A stretch of DNA of 64,000 bases from positions 265,882 to 329,881 of the forward strand of contig WJMO01000006.1 in the NCBI GenBank assembly GCA_014727915.1. The letters run 5' to 3'. Position 1 is the first letter of the stretch; the number at the start of each line of letters is the position of its first letter. Position numbers and translations under genes: made by a program. Of this stretch, positions 7,269 through 56,792 are shown one piece after another. The notes under the pieces were generated by a model that saw nothing but the letters and a program-made list of their open reading frames with translations, ran no database searches and was not told the origin of the DNA. This DNA comes from Candidatus Altiarchaeales archaeon. Its GTDB lineage: Archaea > Altiarchaeota > Altiarchaeia > IMC4 > SCGC-AAA252-I15.

Positions 7269-7272
7269 ATTA

Positions 7273-22102: not shown

Positions 22103-22104
22103 AG

Positions 22105-33435: not shown

Positions 33436-33459
33436 AGGGATATATCCATTTAATTGTAC

Positions 33460-34994: not shown

Positions 34995-37226
34995 CTATTT
35001 TCTTAAATAATTCATGATTTTATCAAAATAACCCCTGTATTCCGGTATCAGGGTGTTGTGTCTGTTTGATATGAGAACGTCGGCTGCGAACACCAGACAG
35101 GCCAGGGGGAAGTAGAGGACCCACGAGTGCCATATGTTCAGCTCGTGGTTTATCTGCCAGTAGCCGACGACCAACAAAGGCATGAGCGCGGAATATCGGT
35201 TGTTGAGGAAGAACGCCAGTATTAGGAAGGGCATGCACCATAGGAGATACTGCTCGTGGATGACGTGGGTAGACACGAGGAATAGGGTGAACACCAACGC
35301 CCCCATCGTATACCGGTCCAATCTGATGAAAAGGGATGTTAGGACGATGAGCGCGAAGTAGGACCTGAACATGAGGTTCCTTATGGTAACGTAGTCTTCG
35401 AAACCCCACCCCTCCAATTTGGTCATCCAAGACATGCCTGCGGGCGGGCGGTCCAGGTTAGGGCCTATCAGACGCTCGTACACCAGCAGGGGATCGTCCA
35501 CCAGGAAAGGCAGCATTAGGAGGAACGCCAGCAGCAAAGCCATGAAAGTCCTCTTGTAAAGCCTCTTCTGCAATATCAGCCATGGGAGCAATAGAAGCGC
35601 GAATTGTTTGTGCACGAGAGCATAACCATAGTAGAGAGAGAACCTCGAATGCTCGATGTTCTTCAACGCTAGGAGTATCAAGCCCAGTCCTAGAGCGTCT
35701 GTCTTCCCCTCTGAAGCGCCTATTCTAAGGACCTCGGGGTTGAAGAGGTAGAGGGAGACAGCCAACAACGCCAGGGTCTTGCTCTTGCCTCTGCCACGGA
35801 GTATGGACCAGATGCCGTATGCGACAAGCAGGTCTCCAAGTACGGCAGGCAGCTTTATGAGATAGGGCAGGTATAGGGAGTTGAACCCGAACAATACCCT
35901 GATGATTCCGAGGGGGTACATGGCCCAGCCCGGGGGCTTGGTCAGGTATAGGTTCCCGTTGAAGTTGTAATCCGGATCCAATAGGGTCAGGTGGAGGTCG
36001 GTCTTGTGTATGAGGTTCTCGGTGTAATAGAGTTCCATGTCCTTGACGTCTATGTTGAGGAAGGTGGGCATTATGACGACCCGTATCATCATGGCGAAGA
36101 TGACCACTGCGAGTATCATCCGGTTCTCATGGACGATCCGGCAGAGGCCCCGTAGTGATTCGGAGAAGTCACGCCCTCGAACACAGACATACGAGTAATA
36201 GCATAGCACAATAAGAGATAGCAGTGCGGTGACACGCCATTCGAACGCGTTAAGGCCGTGTTCGACGAAGAAATAGCCACCACCCCTGCCGCGTGTCCTG
36301 ACGGCCAGGGTGTGGATTTCCTCATCCCCCAAATTCGCCCTTAACCTGTACCCTGAAGTGTACTGGACCCTGGACGCGCCATTGTCGAACTCTAGCTCTC
36401 CGTCCAAGTAGACCTTTTCTACGTTAAGGTCCGATACTATGTCGATTTCGACCTCCTCTGCGGAAGATGTGAACTTCACCACGTTGAAGCCGCCACCCCT
36501 GAAGAAGGGGAGATCCACCTCCCTGAAGCCCCTGAGGCCATACCAGGGCTGATACCACCCGCCACCCTCATAGCTGCTGTAGAACGACCCAACCACCTTG
36601 AACTCCCTCGCATTCTGGAATATCATGAACGAGGAGAGGAGGAGCAGAAGCAGCGACAACACGAGGATAGCATGGGGCGCCATTCCCTCCAGGACATGCC
36701 CATAGTCCTCCAGGACCGCGCGGAATAATAGCAGGACGGATGATGCGAGGACAGCAAGCATGAGGAAGATAACCGGTGGTGATTCGCCCGCCAGGTTCAG
36801 CCTGCCCTCCCCCCCGCCTGTGTTCATCACGTGCAGGGCCAGAACATGACCGCCATCATCCTCTCCGCCGGATAGGTTGAGGTCAAGTCCTGCGCAGTGG
36901 GTGCATGAGCCGCAGCTGCTGTTGAATATCATGCGCCCGTCAAAGTATGCCTTGGATAGGCAGTCGTCAACCTTTATTATCCTGAAGACCCCACCGGCTG
37001 GGAGCTTGTCCATGTGTATTCGAAAGTATCCCTCAAGGTTTTCGGTGTAGGAGGAAACGGGAAGCCACATGCCGTCGTCGAATGACCTATCCCGCCATCC
37101 GGGGACCCTGTCTTGGCTGTAGCGTATTTCATACGAGTATTGGCTTCGGTAGTCGTTGAGTGCGTATAAGCTGGCTACCATCAACACCATATAGAGCAGA
37201 ACCTTCAGCTTCTTCCAAGAGCCCAT
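34995..37226 (-). CDS. membrane protein: two jelly-roll ectodomains plus GT-C (DUF2029/GT87-like) domain
   Basis: The true start is the ATG at 37226 (M66 of the track ORF), 2 nt after the asnB stop. The track N-terminus overlaps asnB. The first jelly roll (36792..37115) carries the CGSCTHC cluster. The C-terminal part ..KLPAVLGDLLVAYGIWSIL..LYLFNPEVLRIGASEGKTDALGLGLILLAL.. is GT-C-like. Confidence 0.7.
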   Translation of the reverse strand: MGSWKKLKVLLYMVLMVASLYALNDYRSQYSYEIRYSQDRVPGWRDRSFDDGMWLPVSSYTENLEGYFRIHMDKLPAGGVFRIIKVDDCLSKAYFDGRMIFNSSCGSCTHCAGLDLNLSGGEDDGGHVLALHVMNTGGGEGRLNLAGESPPVIFLMLAVLASSVLLLFRAVLEDYGHVLEGMAPHAILVLSLLLLLLSSFMIFQNAREFKVVGSFYSSYEGGGWYQPWYGLRGFREVDLPFFRGGGFNVVKFTSSAEEVEIDIVSDLNVEKVYLDGELEFDNGASRVQYTSGYRLRANLGDEEIHTLAVRTRGRGGGYFFVEHGLNAFEWRVTALLSLIVLCYYSYVCVRGRDFSESLRGLCRIVHENRMILAVVIFAMMIRVVIMPTFLNIDVKDMELYYTENLIHKTDLHLTLLDPDYNFNGNLYLTKPPGWAMYPLGIIRVLFGFNSLYLPYLIKLPAVLGDLLVAYGIWSILRGRGKSKTLALLAVSLYLFNPEVLRIGASEGKTDALGLGLILLALKNIEHSRFSLYYGYALVHKQFALLLLPWLILQKRLYKRTFMALLLAFLLMLPFLVDDPLLVYERLIGPNLDRPPAGMSWMTKLEGWGFEDYVTIRNLMFRSYFALIVLTSLFIRLDRYTMGALVFTLFLVSTHVIHEQYLLWCMPFLILAFFLNNRYSALMPLLVVGYWQINHELNIWHSWVLYFPLACLVFAADVLISNRHNTLIPEYRGYFDKIMNYLRK

Positions 37227-37228
37227 GT

Positions 37229-39094
37229 TTAAACACCGAACCTTTCCCTCCACATCTGGAACATAAGCAGAGTCCATATTTTCTTGCGGTGGTCTGCTCT
37301 GCCTGTGAAGTGCTCGTCGAGGAGGCCTTGGACGTGGTCGGGGTTGAATATGCCCTCCTCCTCCAGCCTCTCCCTGTCGAATGCCTTCAAAGCCAGCGGT
37401 TTGAGGTCTTTCTTCAGCCATTCAGCCACGGGTATTCCGAACCCCTTCTTACTCCTGTCCACGATGTCTGCAGGTATACTGTCCCTGAACGCGTCCTTCA
37501 ATATGGCCTTAGTCGTCAAGCCCCTGACCTTGTCCCCGTAGGGGATGGAGCACGCGTATTCTATGAAGTAGTGGTCTAGGAAAGGCGACCTGGCCTCCAA
37601 CGACACTGCCATGCTCGCCCGGTCCAACTTCGCCAGGATGTCCCCGCCAAGGTAGAACCTGCTGTAGAAGTAGATAAGCCGGCCATCGAAGCCTTCAACC
37701 CCGGACCCGGCGAACGCATCGTCGATGATGCCATAGGGGTCTTTTGACGTTCTGTTCTTAACATCCGCTGATAGCAGCTTCTCCTGCTCCTCCGGGGTGA
37801 AAGAGCCCAGCCAAGCCTGATGCCGCCTCAAGCCATCGTATCCGTCCCCGGACACGAACCTCTTCAGCTTGAAGTCGAGGCTTATGTTGCTCGTGGAAAC
37901 AGGTAATGAATCCGCAAGACGCTTCAAAACCCTGCGGACAGGCAGAGGCATGATGCGGTAGTATCTGTGGATCTTTTCCGCCTGGAACGTGGGATAGCCG
38001 CAGAACAATTCATCACCGCCGTCGCCGCCCAACGCGACGGTAACATGCTCCCTCGTATACTTTGAGAGCAGGTATGTTGGTATGACTGAAGCGTCTCCGA
38101 ATGGCTCGTCCAGGAAGCCGACCACCTCCTCCAGTATACCCAACATGTCATCCGCCTTGAGGAGGCGCTCATGGTGGTCTGTGCCAAAGTGTTCCGCAAC
38201 CCTCCGCGCATGATTTGACTCGTCGAATGACCTGTCTTCAAAGCCGATTGTGAAGGTCTTGATCCGGTCCGGGGGCACCAGCTCGGACATTAGCGATACT
38301 ATGATGGATGAGTCAAGGCCGCCGCTCAGGAAGACACCAAGCGGGACGTCGCTCACAAGCCTCCGCTCAACCGACGACTTCAGCCTTGAGCGGATCCCCT
38401 CCAGCTTAGCCGAACGGCGTTCACCCGAGTCCTCGAATCTCATGCCCCAGTATCGTCCCACCTTGACGTTCCCATCCTCTAAGGTGAGGGTATGGCCTGG
38501 AGGCAGCTTCCGAACGCCCTCGATTATGGAATATGGCGCCGGCACGAATTCGAAGGCGAGGTACATCCGCAGCGCATCCAAGTCGATACTCCTTTCCAAT
38601 CCGGGGTACTTCAACAGCGCCTTCAGCTCGGAGGCGAACAGAAACCCGTTTCCAAGGAGACAGTAGTAGAGTGGCTTCTGGCCCATCCGGTCACGGGCAA
38701 GCCACAGCCGGTCGTGTCTGCCATCCCACACGGCGAAGGAGAACATCCCATTCAACATGGTCACACACCCGACATCGTATTCTAGGTAGGAGTTCAACAG
38801 AACCTCGGTGTCCGACCCCGTCTTGAACGTGTGTCCTTTGCCTTCAAGTTCGGCCCGGAGCTCCCGGTAGTTGTATATCTCCCCGTTGTATACGAGCTGT
38901 ACTTCCCCTGACTCATCACTCATGGGCTGGTCCGCTCCCCCGCTGAGGTCTATGACCTTTAGCCTGGTGTGCCCGAGGGACATGCGGTCTGAGACGTATA
39001 TTCCGGAGCTGTCAGGGCCCCTGTGAGCCAGTGAACCCCCCATAAGGGAAACGAGTTCCCTGTCCCCCCAGTTGAACCCGCAGATGCCGCACAT
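37229..39094 (-). CDS. asnB: asparagine synthase (glutamine-hydrolysing)-family amidotransferase
   Basis: The N-terminal nucleophile is in MCGICGF and the PP-loop is FLSGGLDSS. The protein is 621 aa. It sits in a glycosyltransferase operon, so it may amidate a sugar rather than make Asn. Confidence 0.9.
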   Translation of the reverse strand: MCGICGFNWGDRELVSLMGGSLAHRGPDSSGIYVSDRMSLGHTRLKVIDLSGGADQPMSDESGEVQLVYNGEIYNYRELRAELEGKGHTFKTGSDTEVLLNSYLEYDVGCVTMLNGMFSFAVWDGRHDRLWLARDRMGQKPLYYCLLGNGFLFASELKALLKYPGLERSIDLDALRMYLAFEFVPAPYSIIEGVRKLPPGHTLTLEDGNVKVGRYWGMRFEDSGERRSAKLEGIRSRLKSSVERRLVSDVPLGVFLSGGLDSSIIVSLMSELVPPDRIKTFTIGFEDRSFDESNHARRVAEHFGTDHHERLLKADDMLGILEEVVGFLDEPFGDASVIPTYLLSKYTREHVTVALGGDGGDELFCGYPTFQAEKIHRYYRIMPLPVRRVLKRLADSLPVSTSNISLDFKLKRFVSGDGYDGLRRHQAWLGSFTPEEQEKLLSADVKNRTSKDPYGIIDDAFAGSGVEGFDGRLIYFYSRFYLGGDILAKLDRASMAVSLEARSPFLDHYFIEYACSIPYGDKVRGLTTKAILKDAFRDSIPADIVDRSKKGFGIPVAEWLKKDLKPLALKAFDRERLEEEGIFNPDHVQGLLDEHFTGRADHRKKIWTLLMFQMWRERFGV

Positions 39095-39100
39095 TTGAGA

Positions 39101-40063
39101 TCAGTCCAATACTTCCTCTACAGAATAGAACTTGAACTTCGACCCTGAGAAGTACGCCCTAATCATTATCTCGCTCAGGAAGCCGAAGATTATCGAGAGC
39201 ATGCCTGTAATCGTCAGCAGGATGCCGAGCATCAGGAGCGGGCCCGCCTCCAACCTCCCGATTATCAGCGCCTTGATTATCTGCTCAACGAATATCAGTC
39301 CTGCAAGCAGGTACTGTGACACTCCGAAATTGCCGAAGAAGTGGAGAGGGCGTGTCGAGTAGTCGCTCCAGAACTTCACGAACAGCAGGTCGAACAACCC
39401 GTTGATGAGCCTTCCACTGGAGTATTTGGTCTTTCCGTGCTCCCGGGGTCGGTGGTTGACCTTGACCTCCCCTAGCTTGAAGCCCTTCCAGGTCAGGAGG
39501 GAGGGTATGTAACGGTGCATCTCCCCGTACAATTCCAGCTCGGACACGGACTCTCGCGTATACGCGCGGAGGGAGCATCCGCTATCGTGTATCTCCTCCC
39601 CGGTGAGGAGCTTCCTCAGTCTGTTGGCGAAAGCGGAGGGAAGTGTCTTGGACAGGGGATCATGGCGCTGGTGCCTCCAACCGCATACCACGTCATATCC
39701 TTCATCCAGCTTTTCCAGTAGCCGGGGTATGTCCGCAGGGTCGTTCTGCAGGTCCGCGTCCATGCTGACTATCACACTGCCGCTCGCGTGGGTGAACCCC
39801 GCGTCTATGGCAGCTGTCTGTCCGAAGTTGCGCCTGAACTTCACGACCCGCACTTGCTCATGCATCTCAGAAAGACTTTTCAGGGCTTCATATGAGCCGT
39901 CGTCTGAGCCGTCGTCTACGAATATTATCTCATAGGGGCTGCCCATCGAGTCAAACACCTTTTTAAGCTGGCTGTGGAGGGGCCCTATGCTTTCCACTTC
40001 ATTGTAGACTGGTATGACGACCGACAGCATATTGTCCTCTTCCGCGATGGCAACCACCCCCAT
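39101..40063 (-). CDS. GT2 polyprenyl-phosphate glycosyltransferase (GtrB/ArnC-like) with C-terminal TMs
   Basis: Motifs present are LSVVIPVYNE, IIFVDDGSDDGS and MDADLQNDP (DxD). There are two C-terminal TM helices. The start could instead be the ATG at 40030. Confidence 0.9.
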   Translation of the reverse strand: MGVVAIAEEDNMLSVVIPVYNEVESIGPLHSQLKKVFDSMGSPYEIIFVDDGSDDGSYEALKSLSEMHEQVRVVKFRRNFGQTAAIDAGFTHASGSVIVSMDADLQNDPADIPRLLEKLDEGYDVVCGWRHQRHDPLSKTLPSAFANRLRKLLTGEEIHDSGCSLRAYTRESVSELELYGEMHRYIPSLLTWKGFKLGEVKVNHRPREHGKTKYSSGRLINGLFDLLFVKFWSDYSTRPLHFFGNFGVSQYLLAGLIFVEQIIKALIIGRLEAGPLLMLGILLTITGMLSIIFGFLSEIMIRAYFSGSKFKFYSVEEVLD

Positions 40064-40180: not shown

Positions 40181-43100
40181 ATGAAAAAGAAGAGAAGAAG
40201 CATGCAAGAGAGGATCTCCCTGTTTTTTCTCGTGCTCGCAGCAGCAGTGACAGCATACTCCCTACTGACCCACCTCAGCACCGAGGACGTTGGGGAGTTC
40301 CAGTGGTACTTCTCGGAGAACGTGACCTGCAACGCGGACAGCAACCTCGGCCAGCCTGGCTGGGAGGAGATAAACGTGCCGTTCACGAGGCAGGAGTCGG
40401 GGAGGAATGTTTGCTTCCTTGGAGTGTCTCATTCCCTCAAAAGCGGGGACGATCTCAGCCTGGAAGTGAGGGTGGACGACAGCATCCGGGGCGTCTACCT
40501 GAACGGGGAGACCGCAAAGTCCATAAGGACCCAGGGCGGTTGGAGGAAGGTCGTGCTGACGGACAGCCTATTGGACGGGGAGAACAGACTGGTGGTCTCC
40601 GGGTATAACATAGCCAAGAACGTGGACCTGAACGTCGTCAGGGAAACCCCAAACAACATGGGATGGTTGTGCCTGGGTCTCGTGTTCGCGTTCATATTGA
40701 CAGCGAAAGACCTTGGCCGAAAACCAGGCTATCTCCTCTTCGCAGCCGCATTGATAATAGTCATATACCTGTTCCCCGCATTCGGGAGGTACAACTACTG
40801 GGGGATAGGGGACTGGAACCAGTTCCAGACCTTCTACCAGTCGGCGAAGAACACCATAGTAAAATACCACCAGTTCCCTCTGTGGAACCCGTACATATGC
40901 GGGGGCAACGTCCAACTGGCCTATCCGCAGCCCGGGTTCCTGTCACCCTACCTCATAACGCTTCTCGTCTTCGATGTGGCCCACGGCATCAAGATAAACC
41001 TAGCCCTCTACTTCATAACCGGCGTAATAGGCTGCTACCTCCTCTCCAGGAAGATGGGGTTGGGCGCCTATTCGACACTCCTGTTCTCCATGACCTTCGT
41101 GTTGAGCGGGTACTTCGCCCACCGCATAAACCAGGGGCACGTGCCCACGCTGATAATCGTCTACCTGCCCTTGATCGTGTACCTTTACTGGAAGACACTG
41201 GAGGACTTCAAATACGCCCCGCTTATGGCGGTGGTGGTCGCCCTCTACGTACTAGAGGCCCACCCGTTCCTCACCACGTTGGTGATGATGTTCCTCGTTT
41301 TCTACAGCGTCTTCCTCTCTGGGACGACCGCCGTGTCCATAACGTTGCGCGGGGAGAAGAGGAGGGCCAGGTCCTGGGCCAAGTACTTGCCTGCCGCGAA
41401 GCCGCTTACTGTCGCGGTGGCCGTGTCCCTGCTCGCAGCCATGCTAGTGGGTTTCAAGGTGGTTCCAGGGTTGGATTTCGCACATGACAACCCGAGGATG
41501 GTTTCGGACGACACCGGATTCAACAGGGGGCTTTTGAAGGATGCGCTGCTGTTGGGTAAGAAGTCAGAGAACCGGCACTCCTGGGGTTGGCACGAGTACA
41601 ACGGCTACATAGGGGTGGTCCCGCTGATTCTCGCCGTTTTGGGAATGCTATTGTCTCTGAGGAAGCCCAAACTTCTCGCTTTGATGATGTTTCTCGCGTT
41701 CATAACGATGTACTCCTTCAACGAGTACTCTCCGGTGAACCTGTGGGAGCTTTTCCACAAGCTGCCGTTGTTCAGCTCCCAGCACCTTCCCATGCGCTCC
41801 ATAGCGTACATAACATTCATACTCTCTTTTTTCGCGGGGTTGGGTTTGGACAGGATAGAGAGGGCCAACTCCCACCTGGCAAAGCTCGTTCTGGTCTTTG
41901 TCGTCGTCAACCTTTTCACCGTTAACACAAACCTCATAGAGGGGACGTTCAGGTACACGCCGAGGATGGACTATGAGAGCTCTATCGGAGCCTTCCACCA
42001 GGCGGAGGACGTGGACGACCGCGGAAGCCCCTCGGACAACATGTACTCCTTCGTGCTCCAGGACGTTGGGGTCACAAACTGCTACGCACCGGGGGGTTTG
42101 AACAACCATGCAACGCCCGTTCAGAGGGCTAACTACAGGGGGGAGGCTTATCTCATGGGCGGAAGCGGAAGCGCTCGGGTGTTTGCGTTCTCCCCCAACC
42201 AGGTGGACGTCATCGTGGACACTCCGGCCCCGAACGTGGTGGTGATAAACCAGAACTACTATGAGGGCTGGTCCGCCGACGGCATAGCCGCGGAGAACAC
42301 TAGGGGGCTGGTGTCTGCGAGGGTGGACGCCGGGAAGAAGATGGTGTCATTCTCCTACGAGCCTCCAGGGCTCAAATTGGGGGTGGCCCTCTCCCTGTTG
42401 GGCCTACTGTTATCTGCGATCATCTACAGGGGCGAGCACAGGAAGATGATAGCCCGGGCTGAATGCTTCGTAAAAGAGCACCTTTTGGATTCGAAGCCTT
42501 TCAGGGGCATGGTGTTGGGGGTGCTGCTGGCTGCGGCCGTCCTATCGACGAACTTCATGGTCGGGGAGGTTATGCAACCCGACGACGTTTGGACGTTCTA
42601 TACGGGCGGGGATGTTGACGGATGGTACGAGCTCGGATTCGACGAGGCCGGGTGGGAGAGGCGGGGCCTTCCCTTCGAAGAGGATAACATAGGGCAGATA
42701 CTCGCAAGGGGCACCGTCTACGTGAGGGATGTGGAAAAGGCCTACGTGGAAATCGTGGGGGACGACTGCATCAGCGAATTCTACATAAACGAGAGGAAGG
42801 CCTATGAGACGAGGAGCTGCGGGCACATGACGCACTGCAACGGAAAGAGGTTCGACCTGAGAAGGCACGTGCAGCCGGGAGCCAACAAGTTCGCATTGAA
42901 GATACTGAACAGCGGAGGAGGCCCGGGACGGTTCAACATCAGATGGGAGGACAGGAGCCTGCGGACCAGGCTGTTCAGGGTTGACAGCCTCCCGTATACT
43001 CTGCTTTTACTATCACTTCTGTGGATCGCGTTCATCCACAGGGAGAAGCCCATGGAGTACCTCGCCAGGAAGGCTAGCAATGCTGTGAAAGCCTCTAAGA

Positions 43101-45292
43101 GGAGGAAGAGGAGGAAAAAGACGGTTGACAGCGTCAGAGATTTCAGGAAGGTAGTCTACGCACTGCTCTTAATATCCCTGATATCATCGGCCTATTTCGG
43201 TTTTGAGGCCCTAAACTCTTCGGATATAAGAGGTTCCTGGAGGTTCCAAACGGGAGCGGAGCCGAAGGGGTGGTACACTGAGGATTTTGAGGACGGGGCG
43301 TGGACTGCCGGGGAGCCGGAGTTCAGGAGAAGCCAGATATCACATATGCTGGTGAGGGGAGAGGTCAGGATAGACAGGGTGAAGGACGCGGTGGCGAGCA
43401 TCGTGGGGGACGACTGCATCAGCGAATTCTACATAAACGACAAGAGGATATTCGAGACGAGGGACTGCGGGCACATGACGCACTGCAACGGAAAGAGGTT
43501 CGACCTTACGGAACATGTCCGCAAGGGAGGTAACACGTTCGCGCTGAAGATACTGAACAGCGGAGGAGGCCCGGGACGGTTCAACATCAGATGGTTGAAT
43601 AGGAGGAACACAACCCCTGCAGTGATATCGATGGCATTGTCCGCGATATTGCTACTTCTCATTTTACAGGATATAACCAAGCTGAAGAGAGTTGATGGAT
43701 ACATACGATTAATCGCGGGTAAGGCTGTCAAAGCCGCGGACAGGATGCTTCCAGTCCTGCTATTGGCCATAATATTGGGTGCGACATTCTTCACGTTGAA
43801 GCACGGTAACACCGGCTACATGGACAAGAAGGTGCGGGACGCCGTCATTGTCTCTTCCGCGGTGGCAGGTGTGCTGTTGGGGGCCGTCATTCACCTGAGG
43901 GGGGGCGAGGTGATCTCGGCCCGGACGTTCAAGGCAGTGTGCATCCTGGGAGCATTGTTCTATATGACGTTGCTATTTCTGCCAAGAGGGTTCAACGCGG
44001 ACGCAGCCATGCAGTCAGTATTCGCCTTCGACATACTCAAAGGGGAGAAGCTGACCCACTACAACGCCACGGGATACCTCGAATACCTGACTTTCATCTA
44101 CCCCCTGCTGCCATTCTACGCGTTGCTGGGGCACCAGGAAGTCCTGATAAAGGCGTTGATAGTCGCGTATGAGCTGGTTTTCATAGTCTTCCTCTACAAG
44201 CTGGTGAGACTGTGGTATGGTGTCAATGCCGCCAGGTACGCCGCGTTCTTCGCGCTGTTCTCCGGCGCCATGACCTTCGTGTTCTCACCATACCTGTCAC
44301 CTGCAACTACGATACCCGTAATAGCGATATACCTCCTGGAAAGCGGCGGCAGGAAACGTCGCTTCCTCGGGTTCGTCCTGGGCGGAGTCTCATACTATTA
44401 CTACTATCACATGCCATTCTACGTGATCCTAGTATATGTGGTGGTAGAGTTCATCTTCAACCCCGGGAGGATTCGGAGGGACTACACCGCATTGGCGGTC
44501 GCTGCGCTGATAGTCTTGCCCGGGTTCCAGGCCACCCTTGCCAACCCCTCCGCGGACAAGACGTTGAACGGCTTCCTTGTGGGAGCTGACACAAGCCACC
44601 TGGGATGGCACGAGTACAGGAAGGACCTGGAGGCCGTGTTCCAGTCCAACTACAAGCTCGCGACCATAAACCCTGTGCTCACAGCCCTAACGGCATTGTC
44701 CATCTTATACTTCATCTTCAAGGCCCTCGAATCAGGTGACAGGGTCAGATTCATATATGAGAACAAGAGTGCCGTTTTCGCGGTTCTCTTCTTCCTGATG
44801 CTGTTCCCCGTGCTGTTCTACGCCCCGTACGTGCAGCCGAGGGTCTACCGCTTCGCATTGCCGGCGTTCTTCATACTCGCGGGGGTCTTCGTTGGCAAAG
44901 TCTCACGCCCGGGAGCGGCGCGTATCATGCTCGTGTCCCTGCTTGTCATCTACGCGGGAGTGGACGTCTACAACCACTTCGACTATGTGACGAGCAGGAA
45001 GTCCATAAGCCCAGGGGAGTTCGAGTACGGCCTTGGAGAGGCTTCGAGTTATCTGATGATGCAGAACCCCAGGAAAGTGTACGTGGACCATAGGATGGAG
45101 CATCAGCTGAGGTTCTACAGCGGGGATAAACTGCCGGTTAGGGAGGTTAACACGATGGGCAAATGCAGCTACTACGTGTTCTGGAGCAACAACAGGGAGA
45201 ACACGTTCGACAGGCCCAACCGGAAGGTTGTGAAGACCATCGACTACCCGTGGGGGGAGCCGGCCATAAGGATACACAGGGAGTGTGGTTGA
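40181..45292 (+). CDS. 1703-aa fusion membrane protein: jelly roll + YfhO-like GT-C + 2 jelly rolls + ArnT/PMT_2-like GT-C
   Basis: The YfhO signature is YHQFPLWNPYICGGNVQLAYPQPGFLSPY, with the family C-terminal element NQNYYEGWSADG...VSFSYEPPGLKLG. The second GT-C-like block is ..YPLLPFYALLG..ALIVAYELVFIVFLYKLVRLWYGVNAARYAAFFALFSGAMTFV... Three W..(F/Y)....GW....FD(D/E).(G/A)W jelly-roll segments are present. Confidence 0.8.
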   Translation: MKKKRRSMQERISLFFLVLAAAVTAYSLLTHLSTEDVGEFQWYFSENVTCNADSNLGQPGWEEINVPFTRQESGRNVCFLGVSHSLKSGDDLSLEVRVDDSIRGVYLNGETAKSIRTQGGWRKVVLTDSLLDGENRLVVSGYNIAKNVDLNVVRETPNNMGWLCLGLVFAFILTAKDLGRKPGYLLFAAALIIVIYLFPAFGRYNYWGIGDWNQFQTFYQSAKNTIVKYHQFPLWNPYICGGNVQLAYPQPGFLSPYLITLLVFDVAHGIKINLALYFITGVIGCYLLSRKMGLGAYSTLLFSMTFVLSGYFAHRINQGHVPTLIIVYLPLIVYLYWKTLEDFKYAPLMAVVVALYVLEAHPFLTTLVMMFLVFYSVFLSGTTAVSITLRGEKRRARSWAKYLPAAKPLTVAVAVSLLAAMLVGFKVVPGLDFAHDNPRMVSDDTGFNRGLLKDALLLGKKSENRHSWGWHEYNGYIGVVPLILAVLGMLLSLRKPKLLALMMFLAFITMYSFNEYSPVNLWELFHKLPLFSSQHLPMRSIAYITFILSFFAGLGLDRIERANSHLAKLVLVFVVVNLFTVNTNLIEGTFRYTPRMDYESSIGAFHQAEDVDDRGSPSDNMYSFVLQDVGVTNCYAPGGLNNHATPVQRANYRGEAYLMGGSGSARVFAFSPNQVDVIVDTPAPNVVVINQNYYEGWSADGIAAENTRGLVSARVDAGKKMVSFSYEPPGLKLGVALSLLGLLLSAIIYRGEHRKMIARAECFVKEHLLDSKPFRGMVLGVLLAAAVLSTNFMVGEVMQPDDVWTFYTGGDVDGWYELGFDEAGWERRGLPFEEDNIGQILARGTVYVRDVEKAYVEIVGDDCISEFYINERKAYETRSCGHMTHCNGKRFDLRRHVQPGANKFALKILNSGGGPGRFNIRWEDRSLRTRLFRVDSLPYTLLLLSLLWIAFIHREKPMEYLARKASNAVKASKRRKRRKKTVDSVRDFRKVVYALLLISLISSAYFGFEALNSSDIRGSWRFQTGAEPKGWYTEDFEDGAWTAGEPEFRRSQISHMLVRGEVRIDRVKDAVASIVGDDCISEFYINDKRIFETRDCGHMTHCNGKRFDLTEHVRKGGNTFALKILNSGGGPGRFNIRWLNRRNTTPAVISMALSAILLLLILQDITKLKRVDGYIRLIAGKAVKAADRMLPVLLLAIILGATFFTLKHGNTGYMDKKVRDAVIVSSAVAGVLLGAVIHLRGGEVISARTFKAVCILGALFYMTLLFLPRGFNADAAMQSVFAFDILKGEKLTHYNATGYLEYLTFIYPLLPFYALLGHQEVLIKALIVAYELVFIVFLYKLVRLWYGVNAARYAAFFALFSGAMTFVFSPYLSPATTIPVIAIYLLESGGRKRRFLGFVLGGVSYYYYYHMPFYVILVYVVVEFIFNPGRIRRDYTALAVAALIVLPGFQATLANPSADKTLNGFLVGADTSHLGWHEYRKDLEAVFQSNYKLATINPVLTALTALSILYFIFKALESGDRVRFIYENKSAVFAVLFFLMLFPVLFYAPYVQPRVYRFALPAFFILAGVFVGKVSRPGAARIMLVSLLVIYAGVDVYNHFDYVTSRKSISPGEFEYGLGEASSYLMMQNPRKVYVDHRMEHQLRFYSGDKLPVREVNTMGKCSYYVFWSNNRENTFDRPNRKVVKTIDYPWGEPAIRIHRECG
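42752..42946 (+). repeat. internal repeat copy 1 (jelly roll 2 core)
   Basis: It shares three perfectly identical runs with copy 2: 42752..42792 (41 nt), 42817..42858 (42 nt) and 42897..42946 (50 nt). Confidence 0.9.
43400..43594 (+). repeat. internal repeat copy 2 (jelly roll 3 core)
   Basis: The identical runs lie at 43400..43440, 43465..43506 and 43545..43594, offset 648 nt from copy 1. Confidence 0.9.
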
Positions 45293-45294
45293 AG

Positions 45295-46116
45295 ATGAGG
45301 GGGAAGACGTATGCGTTCGGCAAGAACTGGAAGGACTTCGTGGACAACCACTTGGACGATAGCAGGGTCGAGGAGGCTGTGAAGTCCCTCTCAGGCTTCA
45401 TAGGCGGTGAGAACATTGGCGGAAGGTTCCTGGACATAGGATGCGGCAGCGGGCTCTTCTCGCTGGCAGCATACCGTCTGGGGTTCAACGAAGTCGTCAG
45501 CTTCGACGTGGACCCCCACTCCGTCGCATGCTGCAAGTACCTCAGGGAGAGGGAAGACAACCCGGAGGGTTGGAGTGTCATGGAAGGCTCCATATTGGAT
45601 GAGGAGTTCGTGGGGGGGCTGGAGTCGTTCGACCTGGTCTACTCATGGGGTGTGCTGCATCACACGGGGGACATGTGGAGGGCGATGGGTAACTCGTGCA
45701 AGCTCGTGAAGGACGGTGGCCTGCTCTACATAGCGATATACAACAAGACAGGCAATTGGGGCTTCCACGGCGACGGACGCTTCGGGCCTTCTAAATTCTG
45801 GGAACGGGAGAAGAGGCTCTACACCAGCATGCCATCCCCCATCCAGAAGATGATAGACTATGCCGTGATGGCGGGGCTGGCATTCACTTATGTCCTAAGC
45901 CTGAAGAACCCGCTGAGGGAGATAAAAGAGCATAGGAGGTACAGGGGCATGTCCTGGTCGGTCGACATAAGGGACTGGCTGGGAGGATACCCATACGAGT
46001 ACGCCACCGCAGAGGAAGTGAACAGGTTCGTTGAAGACCGGGGTTTCGAGACTTTGAAGCAGGCAGTACATGGAGGACTCAGGAACAACGAATTCCTGTG
46101 CAGAAAACTCAAATAG
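45295..46116 (+). CDS. class I SAM-dependent methyltransferase
   Basis: The ATG at 45295 lies 2 nt after the upstream stop (the track start at 45163 overlaps the upstream gene). The SAM motif is FLDIGCGSGLFSLAAYRLGFNEVVSFDVD. Confidence 0.85.
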   Translation: MRGKTYAFGKNWKDFVDNHLDDSRVEEAVKSLSGFIGGENIGGRFLDIGCGSGLFSLAAYRLGFNEVVSFDVDPHSVACCKYLREREDNPEGWSVMEGSILDEEFVGGLESFDLVYSWGVLHHTGDMWRAMGNSCKLVKDGGLLYIAIYNKTGNWGFHGDGRFGPSKFWEREKRLYTSMPSPIQKMIDYAVMAGLAFTYVLSLKNPLREIKEHRRYRGMSWSVDIRDWLGGYPYEYATAEEVNRFVEDRGFETLKQAVHGGLRNNEFLCRKLK

Positions 46117-46165: not shown

Positions 46166-46870
46166 ATGGATGGTTACACAGTTCTCATACCGGTCTACAA
46201 CGAGGAGGACATACTGGAGGATAACATCAGAAAGCTTATGGAGTACCTGGACGACCACATGCCAGGCTATCGGATAATCGTCTGCAGCAACGGGTCCACA
46301 GACCGTACGGACGAGATAGGGTCGGGTATAGACGATCCGAGGGTAAGCTTCATCTCCATACCAGAGCGGGGTGTTGGACGGGCTTTCAAGAGGATGGTCC
46401 TAGAGGCTGAGACTGATAAGCTCGTATCCATCGACGTTGATCTAACAAGCGATTTGAGGTTCATACCGGAGTGCGTGCGGCTCCTGGACGAGAACAGCAT
46501 AGTGATAGGGTCGAAGAGGAAGGGAGAGCAGGAGCGGCAGCCGCACCGAACCCTCATAAGCAACGTTTTCATAAAGTTGGTGAAGGTGCTTCTGGGATTG
46601 AAGTACAGCGACTACAGCATCGGCACCAAGGGGTGGAGGAAGTCAGCTATCTCCGAATACGTCGGGGGAATAGACCACGGATCGTCCTATGTTATAGAGC
46701 TGACATACTATGTGGAAGTGGGCGGCGGCGTGATAGCTGAGGTCCCGGTCTTCTGCTCGGACACCCGGGGAAGCAAGTTCAACATAGTAAATGAGATTTT
46801 CTACAGGCTCTACAATCTGCTGAGGTTGTGGGCCAGGGTAAAGCTGGTCAGAGGGCGAAGAACCTCTTGA
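46166..46870 (+). CDS. GT2 glycosyltransferase, dolichyl-phosphate sugar synthase-like
   Basis: Motifs present are TVLIPVYNEEDIL, IIVCSNGSTDRT and SIDVDLTSD (DxD). The protein is short (234 aa) and soluble or peripheral. Confidence 0.85.
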   Translation: MDGYTVLIPVYNEEDILEDNIRKLMEYLDDHMPGYRIIVCSNGSTDRTDEIGSGIDDPRVSFISIPERGVGRAFKRMVLEAETDKLVSIDVDLTSDLRFIPECVRLLDENSIVIGSKRKGEQERQPHRTLISNVFIKLVKVLLGLKYSDYSIGTKGWRKSAISEYVGGIDHGSSYVIELTYYVEVGGGVIAEVPVFCSDTRGSKFNIVNEIFYRLYNLLRLWARVKLVRGRRTS

Positions 46871-49082
46871 GTTCCCTGTTCTTCCCAAGGTGGGCGTAGG
46901 CTATCACCGACACGGCCGACAGGGTCAGTAGTATGCCGATCCAGTCCACCGGCGTCTTACCGTAGACGATCCTCACATGCTTTTGCGTCGGGTACACGAG
47001 CATGAAGGAAGGTGAGACCAGGTATATCTCGTCGGCGCCTTCCGGCTTCCAGCTCGGGTAGTAGGATATGCTTATTATGTGGGGTGCCCCCACGCAGTCC
47101 GTTGTGAACTCTATGACGTCCGATTGGACTATCTCCCGGACGTTGCACTCCCTGTTCAAAGGCGTCTTGGGCAGGCTATCGAGGTCTGCCATGGAAGGGT
47201 CTCGTATGACGTCTTGGAAAAGGCGCATATCGTCGGTGTCGGCGGACTTCTTGAAGGCTATTGGACTGTCTATCAGGTCCATGTTCCGGAACCACTGGTA
47301 GCTGATGTTCTTCCAGTCGCCGGTCTCGTATAGTACAGGCATGTATTCGGGAACTGTGACATACTGGTTGGGGTTGGTGGTGAGCTCCCACACCTCGAAG
47401 GGCTCGTCCCTGAAGGCCATCCTCCACTCGGGGTGGAGCACCAACGCCTCCTTCAGCTTCTCGCTCCTGGCGACGAGGTACTGGGTGTTGAACATCTTCA
47501 GGTGTTCGGTGCCGTCCTCCAGGTTGAAGCTCGTGCACGGATAGACCGCCCAGAAGGGGCAGGACTGCTGCTCGCTCACCTCAGACTGTATGTAGAAGGT
47601 GAAAGGCGAGGTTATTATGGACTGCATGTACAGGCCTTCGAGTATGCTCCTGCCAGCGAACAATGGTATGCTCTCGAATGCGCGGACCGTGCCTGCGGCG
47701 TTGTGCTTGTCGTTGTGCTCGAACTTGGCGCGTGGGCTGCTGACATCGCCCCCCATGAAGTCGTTGGTGGACTTGAACTGCTTCCAGATGCTCTTCTTCT
47801 CGAAGCCCTCATAGTTCCACTCCACCCAGTAGGGTGTGTACCCGCCGTATTTCCACGTCTTCATCTGTTCCATGAACTTCCCGGGGTGGAATTCTATCTT
47901 GTCGTCCTGCGAGGTTATCAGGACCTTGTTGCTGTTCACCCAGAAGACGGTGAGCAACACGACGATAAGCGGGAGTATCCATTTGCCCTTGAGGGGGCGG
48001 ATGAACTGTGAGAGGCCATATGCCGCGAGCACCATGAGGGTCAGGTAGGTGAAGGGCAGGAACCTTATGTCTACCACGCCTATCTTGGGGGCGAGGACGA
48101 AGAACACCAGAGAGGTCACGATGGAGTATGTCAGGAAGACCACGCGGGAATCCCGGCGGTATGCGCACATGAAAAGGCCGAAGCCGGAGAAGAACAGGAA
48201 AGGCCATAGGATGGGAGGGAGGACCTCCTCTGTTATGTTCCAGGGTATGTCGTATGATGTCGTGTATTTGAGCCTGAGTATGAGGGGTATTATCCAGAAG
48301 CCGGTGAGCATGAACGCCAGGGGAAAGGACTTTCCCATGTACTTGACACGCTCCAAAAGCCTCTTGGGGTTGCGGTCGTAAGATAGTATTAAGGAGGACA
48401 AAACCGCCCATAGCACGGTGTATACGTGGGTCAAGGCCACCAGTGCCAGGATGAACGCGTTGGCGAGCATGTGCTTGTTCCGCTGTATCCCATAATAGAG
48501 CACGCCGAAGAAGAGCATGGTGAGGGAGAGGCTTATGCTGTAGGAGAATTCCCCGGCCAGTGTGCTGGGTATGTTTCCACCCCACATGCTGTGGGACTCC
48601 TGGAACAGGAAAGGGAGGGTGAATATGGCGCCGAAGACGGGGGTGGGGAACTTGAAGCGCATCAGCTTCAAACTGGCGAATACCGTCAGAGGCAGTGAGA
48701 ATATGCCTAGCACCGTAACCAGCTTGAAGGATATCTGCAGGGGTATTATGTAGCCGAGCAGGGCTATCATCACGAAGGGCAGAGTGAAGTAGAACTGGAA
48801 CAATGGCATGCCACCATACCATCCCGGAAGCCAGCCTATAACGTGGCCCTTTGGTATGAGCTCTTCCTTGAGGAACTTGGCGGGATAGTAGTGTGATGCT
48901 GTGTCCCCGCCGGCTGTTATGGTCTTCGCTAGCATAACGTCCGGTGTGAAGACCGAGACGAGGAAGCCATATATGACTATGAAGGCTATGATGTTCACTG
49001 CGAGCTCGAGGGTGAGGTTGAGCGTGCGTTTCCCCATCTGCAGTTCAACTCCCTTAGGCTTTCTCTTTGTTTTCTTCTTCAT
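46848..49082 (-). CDS. large polytopic membrane protein, COG5617/PTPS-related-like (probable GT-C)
   Basis: The sequence GGDTASHYYPAKFLKEELIPKGHVIGWLPGWYGGMPLFQFYFTLPFVM is followed by about 12 TMs and a ~330-aa C-terminal ectodomain. I saw no WWDYG (AglB/STT3) motif. Confidence 0.6.
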   Translation of the reverse strand: MKKKTKRKPKGVELQMGKRTLNLTLELAVNIIAFIVIYGFLVSVFTPDVMLAKTITAGGDTASHYYPAKFLKEELIPKGHVIGWLPGWYGGMPLFQFYFTLPFVMIALLGYIIPLQISFKLVTVLGIFSLPLTVFASLKLMRFKFPTPVFGAIFTLPFLFQESHSMWGGNIPSTLAGEFSYSISLSLTMLFFGVLYYGIQRNKHMLANAFILALVALTHVYTVLWAVLSSLILSYDRNPKRLLERVKYMGKSFPLAFMLTGFWIIPLILRLKYTTSYDIPWNITEEVLPPILWPFLFFSGFGLFMCAYRRDSRVVFLTYSIVTSLVFFVLAPKIGVVDIRFLPFTYLTLMVLAAYGLSQFIRPLKGKWILPLIVVLLTVFWVNSNKVLITSQDDKIEFHPGKFMEQMKTWKYGGYTPYWVEWNYEGFEKKSIWKQFKSTNDFMGGDVSSPRAKFEHNDKHNAAGTVRAFESIPLFAGRSILEGLYMQSIITSPFTFYIQSEVSEQQSCPFWAVYPCTSFNLEDGTEHLKMFNTQYLVARSEKLKEALVLHPEWRMAFRDEPFEVWELTTNPNQYVTVPEYMPVLYETGDWKNISYQWFRNMDLIDSPIAFKKSADTDDMRLFQDVIRDPSMADLDSLPKTPLNRECNVREIVQSDVIEFTTDCVGAPHIISISYYPSWKPEGADEIYLVSPSFMLVYPTQKHVRIVYGKTPVDWIGILLTLSAVSVIAYAHLGKNRELKRFFAL

Positions 49083-49938: not shown

Positions 49939-51792
49939 ATGAGATACTACTCGAAAGCATGTTCTAGAGGCCTTCTTGGTGGTGGAATCGAGAACATGGT
50001 ATTGTTAGCGTTGATTCTCGTGGCCAGCTGGGTCATACTCGGCGTAGTCCTGCCTAGGCTCGGGATACTCGAACCCCCCACATCTGAAAGGGGTTATGTG
50101 GGCTTCAGCGGGATCATACCGGAACATGAGAGGCTGGGATGGCTGATAGACAACGAGAACGACAGGGGATTCTTCGTCTTCAGGAACATAGGCGACTCGA
50201 CCGCAACCATAAGGCCTGGATCGGTTGAGGTGACGATCGGGCAGTTGAAATGCGATCCCGCGCCCGCGGACGAGCCATTGTATGTGAAGCCGGGCGACAA
50301 GGCGTTGGTGGAGGTCAGATGTCCGGAACTCAATGAGAGGTTCTCGAGGATAGGCCAGTACTACGAGGCCTATGTTAACATCGTATACGAGACGCCCGCG
50401 GGCATAAGGCACAACAGCAGCGGGATACTATATGGCCACATCGAGAGGACTGACCCGCGGTTTGAGCCTCCAAATCCCAGTATTACGGGCACAACGCAGC
50501 CGAGAATTCCCCAATGTTTCTACCATGAATGCAACGTTTCAGGCGGCATGGACTACTGGAACTGCGGGGACTTACTATCCCAGTTCGAATGCCTCTACTG
50601 CCCGCAAGAGCCGGACCCAGTGGATGGGAAGCATAAGTGCTGGTACACTGGGACTTGTGGTATGGAGTGCAACTCGGACAAGGAGTGCGACCAGTTCACG
50701 ACAGACCCCTATCTGCTACAGCTGAACAAATGCACGAAATGCAGTGAAGACCCGAACAGCCCAATAGACGATCCTAGGTTCATATGCCAGGAGGTCCCGG
50801 GAGTCATTACCTGCGGGCCATGCCCACCATACGACGCAGGCTCGCTCGACAGCGCATGGTGCGACTACGAGGGATGCCGATACTGCTACTATGAATGGGT
50901 CCAGTTAAGCGAGCTGCCAGACGATGGGGTGATGAGATACAGGTGTGTTGAACAGGGTAACTGCGGAGATTCATGCATAGACTATGGTTTTGACGTATAC
51001 CAGGAATGCCAGGAGAGATGCGTTTTCTGCGAGCCGAACGAGGAGACCCCGGACCCTACAGACGGGACATGCGACCAGGGAAGCTGCGGGGAGCACTGTG
51101 GCCTGACCGGGTTGGACGAGTGCGATGAGGGTTGCATGTGGTGCAACAACACCGGGCCTAACCCCAGCTACACGTGCGAGATGGGAGACTGCGGGAAAGA
51201 TTGCGACCCAACTAACCCCATAGACGAGTGCCAGTTGGGGTGCGACATATGCTATGGGCCCAATCTCTTCGGGGAGTACAAGTGCGTTAAGATGGACATC
51301 GCTGCGGCGATAAACGCCAACAACGGCACCGCATTTGGCAACGTGGTTAGGCCTAATGACCCCATATACGTCGACTTGGAGGGCGAGTGCGAGGATGGGA
51401 TTGACAAGCTGCTTGTGAGCAATAGCATAAGCAACGACCCTGCCACTGAGCCGCCCATAGACTGCCAGGCGATAGCGGATCAGATAAACAGCGACCTGGG
51501 GGAGATAGACGACCCGCTGAGCACGGAAGTGAAGGACTACCTGCAGAACACGTGGGGCATAACGTGGATGTCCGCGCCACACCAGTGCGGAGGCGTAAGG
51601 ATATGCAAGCACAGGTGGGAGACTTCGGAGGCTGACATAAACAGGTACTGCTACTTTGGGATAGCCCAGAAGTTCAGCTCTTCCGGGGATGGCAGATGGA
51701 GTCGGATAGTCGGCGACGACATCATCGTGGGTTACATAGATGTCTACCTGGCATACCCAAAGGCGGAAGGTTACGTCCAGCCGCAGTTTTGA
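49939..51792 (+). CDS. membrane-anchored or secreted protein with tandem 6-Cys modules
   Basis: The N-terminal hydrophobic helix is MVLLALILVASWVILGVV (alternative start at the ATG at 49996). Positions 50587..51295 encode five to six tandem C-x2-C...C-x3-G-x-CG-x2-C...C modules. Confidence 0.7.
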   Translation: MRYYSKACSRGLLGGGIENMVLLALILVASWVILGVVLPRLGILEPPTSERGYVGFSGIIPEHERLGWLIDNENDRGFFVFRNIGDSTATIRPGSVEVTIGQLKCDPAPADEPLYVKPGDKALVEVRCPELNERFSRIGQYYEAYVNIVYETPAGIRHNSSGILYGHIERTDPRFEPPNPSITGTTQPRIPQCFYHECNVSGGMDYWNCGDLLSQFECLYCPQEPDPVDGKHKCWYTGTCGMECNSDKECDQFTTDPYLLQLNKCTKCSEDPNSPIDDPRFICQEVPGVITCGPCPPYDAGSLDSAWCDYEGCRYCYYEWVQLSELPDDGVMRYRCVEQGNCGDSCIDYGFDVYQECQERCVFCEPNEETPDPTDGTCDQGSCGEHCGLTGLDECDEGCMWCNNTGPNPSYTCEMGDCGKDCDPTNPIDECQLGCDICYGPNLFGEYKCVKMDIAAAINANNGTAFGNVVRPNDPIYVDLEGECEDGIDKLLVSNSISNDPATEPPIDCQAIADQINSDLGEIDDPLSTEVKDYLQNTWGITWMSAPHQCGGVRICKHRWETSEADINRYCYFGIAQKFSSSGDGRWSRIVGDDIIVGYIDVYLAYPKAEGYVQPQF

Positions 51793-51805
51793 ACATGGTC
51801 TGAAG

Positions 51806-55019: not shown

Positions 55020-55535
55020 ATGTCTTTGTTGACGCGGGATCAGGCACTACAAAAACTCCAATTGAACAATGTACACAGAGATGTTATTGAACATTGTTTA
55101 ACTGTTTCTGGTTTTGCGGTGGAGATCGCAGAGAGGATAAGAGCCAACGGACACCAGGTTGACTTGGACTTCATAGAGACAGCATCACTGCTGCACGACA
55201 TCGGACGATGCAGAACGCACGGGATAGGACATGGAGTGGAAGGGGCCAGGATAATGGAAGACCACCCCCGTTACGCGCGCATCTGCGAGAAACACATCGG
55301 GGGAGGGATCACAAAAGAAGAGGCAGTTGAACTAGGTCTGCCAGCCAGAGACTACCTCCCCGAAACGCTGGAGGAGAAGATAATATGCTACGCGGACAAG
55401 TTGACATCAGGCACAGAAAGACAAAATATCAGCGAAGCAGTGAAGAAGTTCAGCGAACGGCTCGGGCCAGGACACCCAACAATAGAGCGCATAAAAAAGC
55501 TGCATGAGGAGATAACGGAACTAGCAGGATACTAG
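55020..55535 (+). CDS. HD-superfamily hydrolase (HDIG-type)
   Basis: Motifs present are H..V..FAVEIA, LLHDIGRC, GHGVEGARI and ICYADKL. Confidence 0.85.
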   Translation: MSLLTRDQALQKLQLNNVHRDVIEHCLTVSGFAVEIAERIRANGHQVDLDFIETASLLHDIGRCRTHGIGHGVEGARIMEDHPRYARICEKHIGGGITKEEAVELGLPARDYLPETLEEKIICYADKLTSGTERQNISEAVKKFSERLGPGHPTIERIKKLHEEITELAGY

Positions 55536-56752: not shown

Positions 56753-56792
56753 CCATACAACATAAAATAGAAAAACATAAAAATCAAAAGCA

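Follow-up and report, generated by a model that had tools for sequence, protein, structure and literature searches.

Most work on GT-C glycosyltransferases concerns proteins with one module, which handle one sugar at a time, and the coordination of successive extracytoplasmic glycosylation steps is poorly understood. Three-component systems for extracytoplasmic glycosylation consist of a cytoplasmic GT2 donor synthase, a flippase, and an outward-facing GT-C enzyme (PMC7389260, PMC11127046), and the streptococcal systems include protein O-glycosyltransferases of the YfhO family (PMC12041528). In mycobacteria, the GT-C enzyme AftD has three beta-sandwich carbohydrate-binding modules (CBMs), which are thought to hold the complex glycan acceptor (doi 10.1101/2019.12.22.885152), and EmbC has a C-terminal lectin-like CBM (PMC3044687). 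Here we describe an open reading frame (ORF) that joins two polytopic modules of different GT-C families and three beta-sandwich ectodomains in one chain of 1703 aa. It lies on a 64,000 nt stretch (positions 265,882 to 329,881) of contig WJMO01000006.1 from the metagenome-assembled genome (MAG) of a Candidatus Altiarchaeales archaeon. This stretch is referred to as the window, and all positions are counted from its first nucleotide. The families and the logic of such an enzyme are already known; the covalent pairing and the arrangement of cassettes bracketed by transmembrane (TM) helices are unusual.

The initial annotation had described the ORF as a single uninterrupted polypeptide, and this was borne out. 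There is no in-frame stop between 40181 and 45292 on the plus strand, while in the stretch 42400–43800 the alternative frames are interrupted by 15 and 30 stops. A codon log-odds model, for which 14 other Pfam-supported genes within the window served as training set, gave the best score to the annotated frame in 67 of 67 overlapping 150-nt windows. We concluded that the ORF is a genuine single gene, whose product would be a ~190 kDa membrane enzyme. The order of its parts, which the initial annotation had given correctly within a few residues, is an anchor TM (aa 12–30), beta-sandwich 1 (aa 31–159), a YfhO-like module with its C-terminal beta domain (module 1, aa 184–749), TM/beta-sandwich 2/TM (aa 776–953), TM/beta-sandwich 3/TM (aa 988–1165), and a second polytopic module (module 2, aa 1189–1703; Table 1). 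Searches of Pfam and NCBIfam with the whole 1703-aa protein gave no match at E ≤ 1, and Pfam gave only sub-threshold hints when the protein was split into seven pieces. Judged by direct profile searches, the criterion given with the initial annotation, the proposed domain names would have failed at this point; they were recovered through intermediate sequences, profile–profile comparison, and a structure model. This transitive and structural evidence supported the claim that two different GT-C families and three related beta-sandwich ectodomains are combined in one chain.

Module 1 is homologous to the YfhO family (PF09586). A phmmer search of 5.8e9 proteins found seven distant matches (P0003–P0009, E 1.6e-10 to 1.2e-5), all of them annotated as PF09586, and on re-scan this profile matched P0003 with E 2.4e-24 and P0009 with E 4.8e-8. 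The matches align to the TM core of the query (aa ~189–576) and to aa 662–743. The latter stretch has 36% identity to residues 862–948 of P0003 and corresponds to positions 753–835 of the 835-position PF09586 profile. In the AlphaFold model strands are predicted at aa 665–726, followed by a helix at aa 731–767. The C-terminal extracytoplasmic beta domain with a final TM helix, which is a trait of the YfhO family, is present in module 1. HHalign comparison of the query subfamily with five PF09586-annotated proteins, which had been chosen among the matches to the query, gave 99.8% with E 7.9e-29 over 339 columns. An acidic residue at D211 (in WGIGDWNQF) and the motifs FPLWNPY..GG and YYxGW are conserved in the joint alignment, and the first outside loop of the module (aa 203–267) holds both D211 (codon 40811–40813) and the invariant FPLWNPY..GG. 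When module 1 was searched in isolation against Pfam, PF09586 was not matched and TgpA_N was the only hit (E 4.5e-4, below the cut-off). A sequence-profile search of the PDB with the module 1 alignment gave no meaningful match. A scan of GTDB genomes returned only distant stand-alone YfhO-like homologs. These are proteins of ~600 aa from Omnitrophota and Planctomycetales MAGs, which span exactly aa 177–755 of the query with 27–29% tblastn identity, and the best Pfam hint for them was GT-C_AftD. The sequence comparisons thus supported the assignment of module 1 as a YfhO-like GT-C with the C-terminal beta domain, as had been proposed.

With the members of the YfhO family, such as YfhO from B. 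subtilis and S. aureus, Lmo1079 from L. monocytogenes, and streptococcal PgtC2 and PgfM1, the query shares the polytopic core and a large first outside loop with an acidic residue and a PLWNP motif (PMC7389260, PMC12041528). Also common to both are a C-terminal beta domain on the outside, after which a last TM ends the module, and an adjoining GT2 gene for a polyprenyl-phosphate sugar. The query differs from the family in that it stays below the PF09586 threshold and falls into a compact subfamily of ~600 aa, with the nearest stand-alone members in Omnitrophota and Planctomycetales. It also differs in its archaeal origin, its N-terminal TM/beta-sandwich/TM cassette, and its fused second GT-C module. 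In an archaeon, the teichoic acids that YfhO enzymes classically modify are not expected.

The closest stand-alone YfhO-like homolog is encoded in the Omnitrophota MAG DAOWGP010000064.1 (locus L002, 4834..6621), where a PMT_2 gene (6635..8194, E 6e-7) follows after 13 bp. We rejected this arrangement as "Rosetta-stone" support, as the L002 PMT_2 protein has no detectable similarity to module 2 of the query. The product of the neighbour gene at locus L003 showed no detectable similarity to module 2 either. The adjacency of YfhO and PMT_2 at L002 holds at the family level only and is not counted as evidence.

Module 2 was assigned through its relatives. The query module itself remained below the PMT_2 threshold (E 3.8, 8.1 bits versus a cut-off of 26.1), also when it was scanned as a member of its subfamily alignment. 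A word-indexed search found P0010 (571 aa, PF13231) with E 2.9e-26 and coverage of 84% of the domain. An exhaustive HMMER search of 1.84e9 representatives found only eight proteins related to module 2. All of them are stand-alone, have 248–646 aa, and begin at a position corresponding to aa ~1250. Four of the nine subfamily members matched PMT_2 (best E 2.2e-8), and HHalign comparison of the subfamily with three canonical PMT_2 proteins gave 92.4% with E 5.1e-7 over 163 columns. The AlphaFold model of module 2 had a predicted template modelling score (pTM) of 0.77 and a mean predicted local distance difference test score (pLDDT) of 73.7. Comparison of this model to the PDB resulted in 19 matches at E ≤ 1e-3, all to GT-C enzymes (ArnT, STT3/PglB/AglB), with ArnT 5f15 at the top (E 1.3e-6, template modelling score 0.53). 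DPY19, Pmt4, ALG9, and AftA/B matched just above E 1e-3. A PDB sequence-profile search with the module 2 alignment gave no meaningful match. The conserved motif LFLPRGFNADAA directly follows core TM1 of the module and includes D1274 (codon 44000–44002). In the subfamily the motif reads LFLPxGFNxD[A/E], with Asp in 8 of the 8 sequences that cover the region; D1274 is a putative catalytic residue. Together, sequence comparison and model supported module 2 as a divergent PMT_2/ArnT-like GT-C, in agreement with the initial annotation.

As in ArnT (PDB 5F15/5EZM; PMT_2 PF13231, GT39/GT83-like), an acidic residue is found right after TM1 of module 2 and a soluble C-terminal domain past the last TM. 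ArnT has the donor synthase ArnC, and an ArnC-like GT2 gene adjoins the query gene. Unlike ArnT, to which it has ~12% sequence identity, module 2 belongs to a very small subfamily that is marked by the motif LFLPxGFNxDAA and by a C-terminal alpha/beta domain of small size, and its acceptor is certainly not lipid A. In the relative P0015 an NPCBM domain is appended after the C-terminal alpha/beta domain. This fits an extracytoplasmic location of the alpha/beta domain.

Hydrophobicity combined with the helix boundaries of two AlphaFold models resulted in 31 TM helices. The helix at aa 1297–1316 was taken as a juxtamembrane helix, as in ArnT-like enzymes, and not as a TM, which was decided by charge. 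When the basic N-terminus was set inside, all strongly basic linkers (aa 387–407, 750–775, 954–987, and 1166–1188) were also inside. Predicted outside were the three beta-sandwiches, the first loop of each module (with D211 and D1274, respectively), the beta domain of the YfhO-like module, and the alpha/beta domain at the C-terminus. Lys and Arg account for 63 of 197 residues in short inside loops versus 18 of 199 outside (Fisher p ~1e-8), a statistic that is partly circular for module 2, where charge had fixed the helix parity. On the basis of the 31-TM model and the charge pattern, the claim that all jelly rolls face outside held as a prediction. Each beta-sandwich would then form a hairpin cassette with an in-to-out TM, an ectodomain, and an out-to-in TM.

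The long and basic linkers at aa 750–775, 954–987, and 1166–1188, which are probably exposed to the cytoplasm, might also be sites of internal initiation or proteolysis, so that the ORF would yield separate enzymes and the working units would be stand-alone GT-C proteins. The start of the stand-alone relatives of module 2 near the equivalent of aa 1250 would fit this. We nevertheless regard this explanation as very improbable: a search, though not a systematic one, revealed neither an internal start signal nor a processing site, and the TM parity is that required of a single co-translationally inserted chain.

The fusion has counterparts in the same genome and elsewhere. The paralog P0002 (GF416_05920, 1282 aa), encoded on the same contig outside the window, has 43% identity to the query over aa 27–923, which comprise the anchor, beta-sandwich 1, the YfhO-like module, a TM, and beta-sandwich 2. 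Its second polytopic module reached the thresholds of GT87 (PF09594, 37 bits) and PIG-M (PF05007, 27 bits). P0002 thus differs from the query by a second module that is GT87/PIG-M-like and not PMT_2-like, and by one intervening cassette instead of two. A neighbour gene within the window (34995..37226, minus strand) codes for an anchor TM, a beta-sandwich, two TMs, a second beta-sandwich, a further TM, and a GT87-like polytopic module. Its beta-sandwiches belong to the same family as those of the query (tblastn E 1.8e-15), but it lacks the YfhO-like module. It is homologous to aa 713–1257 of P0002 (E 1e-26) and, since it matches the second half of P0002, represents a stand-alone form of that half. 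The complete 808-aa ORF of this gene had no Pfam or NCBIfam match. Its first ~65 codons are probably untranslated, because the 5' end overlaps an asnB-like ORF (37229..39094). A third case is the unannotated metagenomic protein P0009 (1554 aa, Logan SRR9952632), in which PF09586 is followed by PF13231 in one chain. Its order of families is that of the query, but there are no beta-sandwich cassettes between the modules. Only its YfhO part aligns to the query (24% identity), whereas its PMT_2 part has no detectable similarity to module 2, so that P0009 looks like an independent fusion at the sequence level.

Since one genome has two independent fusions of a YfhO-like module to different second GT-C modules, the fusion is modular and not unique. 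P0002, the neighbour gene, and P0009 argue, by sequence comparison, that it is biological and recurrent. A scan of metagenomes of the Joint Genome Institute (JGI) with the whole protein returned no relatives. The initial annotation had pointed out that enzymes of both families normally act as stand-alone proteins; the pairing is unusual, but less singular in the light of P0002 and P0009 than had been implied.

The three beta-sandwiches are mutually alignable, and cassettes 2 and 3 are a tandem duplication with 51% aa identity (E 1e-55). Beta-sandwich 1 and the two copies of P0002 align to the same template with an invariant DD..Y.N. For beta-sandwich 2, seven strands were predicted in a low-confidence AlphaFold model. 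Pfam gave sub-threshold hints to GH32_BT1760-like_C for domain 2 (E 0.032) and to Glyco_hydro_2_N for domain 3 (E 0.027). Foldseek, applied to a low-confidence model, returned matches of ~115–130 columns to the N-terminal domains of GH2 beta-glucuronidases and beta-galactosidases with probability 1.0 and E 5e-3 to 8e-2. We chose the label "GH2_N-like" because the Foldseek matches agree with the Pfam hints, and we assign the domains with moderate confidence, from sequence and model, as GH2_N-like beta-sandwiches of the jelly-roll type. A profile built from five beta-sandwich copies found nothing at E ≤ 0.01 among 5.8e9 proteins, and the JGI metagenome scan with the core of beta-sandwiches 2 and 3 gave no relatives. 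The initial description as three jelly-roll ectodomains was supported by the mutual relationship of the domains and by predicted all-beta segments in domains 1 and 2; the resemblance to the GH2 N-terminal fold is tentative, and no significant match to a family profile was obtained.

The query resembles AftD and EmbC in combining a GT-C enzyme with beta-sandwich modules, which in the query are predicted to be outside the membrane. In AftD and the Emb proteins, the CBMs form one contiguous soluble region next to a single catalytic module; in the query, separate TM-bracketed cassettes are combined with two modules.

A Cys/His-rich loop (DDC ... C-G-H-M-T-H-C) is conserved in the type-2 beta-sandwiches, at ~42815..42850 (aa 879–890) and ~43463..43498 (aa 1095–1106) in the query. 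In the form C-x2-C-x-H-C, it is also present in P0002 and in the first beta-sandwich of the neighbour gene at 34995..37226 (minus strand). It is deleted in beta-sandwich 1 and apparently missing in the second copy of the neighbour gene. This loop could be stapled by disulfides or could form a metal site on the outside face.

The similarity between cassettes 2 and 3 is mosaic. In beta-sandwiches 2 and 3, the C-terminal halves (42752..42957 versus 43400..43605) have 86% DNA identity over 208 nt, with one exact word of 50 nt that begins at 42897 in one and 43545 in the other, and use identical codons at 48 of 53 identical residues. The N-terminal halves are strongly diverged. At the sequence level this pattern suggests recent gene conversion. 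A near-identical repeat of this kind could also mislead an assembler, and this protein, a database singleton, comes from a metagenome-assembled genome. The fusion might thus be an artefact of assembly or binning, due either to the merging of two separate genes or to a wrongly resolved number of cassette repeats. Several observations speak against this. Cassettes 2 and 3 are both complete and are separated by a unique TM/basic-linker/TM segment, while a single hybrid cassette would be expected from a chimera mediated by the repeat. The coding frame and the codon usage run on unbroken through every junction, TM parity and charge pattern are coherent across all junctions, and the contig has a length of 537 kb. 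P0002 independently has the junction YfhO-like module, TM, TM, beta-sandwich, TM, second GT-C. We therefore give an artefact very little credence and consider a chimera unlikely. A wrong number of cassettes (one or three, not two) is possible but would leave the fusion intact.

We favour, with moderate confidence, the view that the protein is a GT-C enzyme with two active sites, which acts like a doubled three-component glycosylation system and uses its beta-sandwiches to hold the acceptor. The two flanking cytoplasmic GT2 proteins, one ArnC/GtrB-like and one DPM1-like, would each load one sugar onto dolichyl or polyprenyl phosphate, and some flippase would flip the lipid-linked sugars. The YfhO-like module, with putative catalytic Asp211, would transfer one sugar to a cell-surface acceptor, which may be a glycan or a glycoprotein. 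The PMT_2/ArnT-like module, with putative catalytic Asp1274, would likewise transfer one sugar to a cell-surface acceptor. The three TM-tethered beta-sandwiches would serve as carbohydrate-binding modules and hold the acceptor near both active sites, like the CBMs of AftD. Topology, catalytic residues, donors, acceptor, carbohydrate binding, and the coupling of the two sites are all putative in this scheme. The processive two-step action suggested initially is possible and follows reasonably from the fusion and the flanking genes for polyprenyl-phosphate sugar synthases.

The fusion could also be real without any coupling of its modules. They might then serve separate acceptors, so that the fusion would only ensure co-expression or co-localisation, or one of them might be a non-catalytic scaffold that binds the lipid carrier or the acceptor. 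The YfhO-like module has another partner (GT87-like) in P0002, which suggests a loose, interchangeable pairing and not a co-evolved two-step pathway. In addition, the linkers between the modules are long basic cytoplasmic segments with TM hairpins and offer no obvious interface, and the query modules are too divergent for the Pfam thresholds. On the other hand, both modules retain the acidic residues that GT-C catalysis would be expected to need (D211, D1274), and the two donor-synthase genes flanking the ORF match two active modules, although both facts would still be compatible with independent action. We consider such uncoupled modules rather less probable but a serious alternative.

A number of results weigh against the two-site enzyme that we favour. 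The 1703-aa protein is below every Pfam and NCBIfam threshold, so that the two families could be assigned only transitively. For aa 1–1180 the AlphaFold model is poor, with a mean pLDDT of 47.6 (70–90 in the TM core), and beta-sandwich 3 is unfolded in this N-terminal model. The Foldseek matches of the low-confidence N-terminal model were all above E 1e-3 (Pmt4 0.013, ArnT 0.07, AftD 0.08); for module 1, they are consistent with a GT-C fold without reaching significance. The partial circularity of the charge statistic belongs here as well. Searches of 5.8e9 proteins, GTDB genomes, and JGI metagenomes turned up no ortholog of this architecture, and no members of the beta-sandwich family were detected outside this genome in the 5.8e9 proteins and JGI metagenomes. 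We infer carbohydrate binding by the beta-sandwiches from analogy. Finally, no convincing GtrA/Wzx-like flippase candidate was seen near the locus in a simple hydrophobicity screen of window ORFs of ≥80 aa for proteins of ≤260 aa with ≥3 TM segments, in which profiles were not used. The flippase may be encoded elsewhere.

A bolder version, which we consider doubtful, extends the two-site enzyme. Here the TM/beta-sandwich/TM unit would be a hitherto undescribed, shuffleable "membrane-tethered lectin cassette", which the lineage has placed before and between GT-C modules and by which, in this protein, a single growing surface glycan is physically handed over by the YfhO-like site to the ArnT-like site. 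If true, this would be a covalent two-station assembly line for extracytoplasmic glycans, which is undescribed for GT-C enzymes.

The query, P0002, and the stand-alone partner module, all from one genome, offer a compact system for asking whether proximity couples two transfers of lipid-linked sugars, what keeps acceptor glycans at the membrane surface, and how evolution shuffles GT-C modules and lectin-like domains. The Altiarchaeales are uncultured archaea whose cell envelope is unusual, and the protein points to an unexplored surface-glycosylation repertoire in this group. Because both modules and the beta-sandwich domain are too divergent for Pfam and NCBIfam, they are candidates for new family models.

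Table 1. Positions of the ORF, its predicted parts, and adjacent genes in the window.
Feature	Position	Strand	Remarks
Whole ORF	40181..45292	+	1703 aa plus stop; ATG start; ~31 predicted TM helices
N-terminal signal-anchor TM	40214..40270	+	aa 12–30; preceded by basic cytoplasmic tail MKKKRRSMQER
Beta-sandwich (jelly-roll-like) ectodomain 1	40271..40657	+	aa 31–159; nine predicted strands, pLDDT ~50–76
Return TM closing cassette 1	40658..40708	+	aa 160–176; followed by short basic inside loop DLGRKPG
YfhO-like GT-C transmembrane core	40730..41941	+	aa 184–587; 11 TM
YfhO-type C-terminal outside alpha/beta domain and closing TM	41942..42427	+	aa 588–730 (YYEGW motif); TM aa 731–749
Cassette 2	42506..43039	+	TM 776–795, beta-sandwich 2 796–935, TM 936–953
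Very basic cytoplasmic linker	43040..43141	+	aa 954–987; 14 K+R in 34 residues
Cassette 3	43142..43675	+	TM 988–1008, beta-sandwich 3 1009–1145, TM 1146–1165
Extra TM hairpin	43745..43897	+	aa 1189–1207, 1221–1239; missing in stand-alone relatives of module 2
Divergent PMT_2/ArnT-like GT-C core	43925..44992	+	aa 1249–1604
C-terminal small alpha/beta domain of module 2	44993..45289	+	aa 1605–1703; kept in stand-alone relatives; predicted outside
Neighbour gene, stand-alone beta-sandwich-GT87-like form	34995..37226	-	probable start M66 of 808-aa ORF 34995..37421
GT2, ArnC/GtrB-type polyprenyl-phosphate glycosyltransferase, candidate donor synthase 1	39101..40063	-	full-length
S-adenosylmethionine-dependent methyltransferase, operon partner	45295..46116	+	likely ATG 45295, two bases past stop of the 1703-aa ORF
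Short GT2, candidate donor synthase 2	46166..46870	+	resembles dolichyl-phosphate hexose/mannose synthases

As in three-component systems, a polyprenyl-phosphate glycosyltransferase is encoded alongside the GT-C enzyme. Candidate donor synthase 1 is transcribed divergently, 117 bp upstream of the 1703-aa ORF. It matched NCBIfam ArnC (NF007986, E 5.8e-56), PDB ArnC 9hwj over aa 13–318 (E 9e-51), and the GtrB sll0501 (E 3e-33). Candidate donor synthase 2 matched NF041391 (E 2e-10) and PDB 5mlz (E 1.4e-7), and its best matches were a dolichyl-phosphate hexose transferase, ArnC, and a dolichyl-phosphate-mannose synthase.

Envelope genes are abundant in the window, including those for DUF2079, PTPS_related, and canonical PMT_2 membrane proteins, GT4, and AsnB. 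Just upstream of the glycosylation genes, 24401..33418 (plus strand) codes for a giant surface protein of 3005 aa with nine CARDB repeats, a GEVED domain, and DUF11. This protein could conceivably serve as an acceptor for glycosylation. Further GT-C-type proteins within the same 64 kb are PMT_2 (10130..11716, plus strand, E 1e-20), DUF2079 (33454..34980, plus strand, E 1.5e-60), and PTPS_related (46848..49082, minus strand, E 3.5e-19). A GT4 gene is located at 9037..10155, and the density of GT-C genes in the window is unusually high. For three ORFs within the envelope cluster (49939..51792, 51740..54448, and 22084..24396 on the plus strand; 617, 902, and 770 aa), neither Pfam nor NCBIfam gave a significant match. 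A tandem pair of arylsulfotransferase-like (ASST) genes (55532..58061 and 58058..60013, both on the minus strand) lies beside a gene for a protein with a twin-arginine translocation (TAT) signal that resembles type I phosphodiesterases/nucleotide pyrophosphatases. The ASST genes may add further extracytoplasmic modification chemistry.

Near the glycosylation cluster, some genes of an archaeal locus for type IV filaments were found on the plus strand; they code for an assembly ATPase of the type IV pilus/archaellum type (T2SSE, 4321..6060), a T2SSF-like membrane protein (8055..9035), and a class III signal peptide protein (21128..22102). Besides the latter, the archaeal marker genes in the window are those for TFIIE-alpha and a wyosine (Taw1-type) radical-SAM enzyme.

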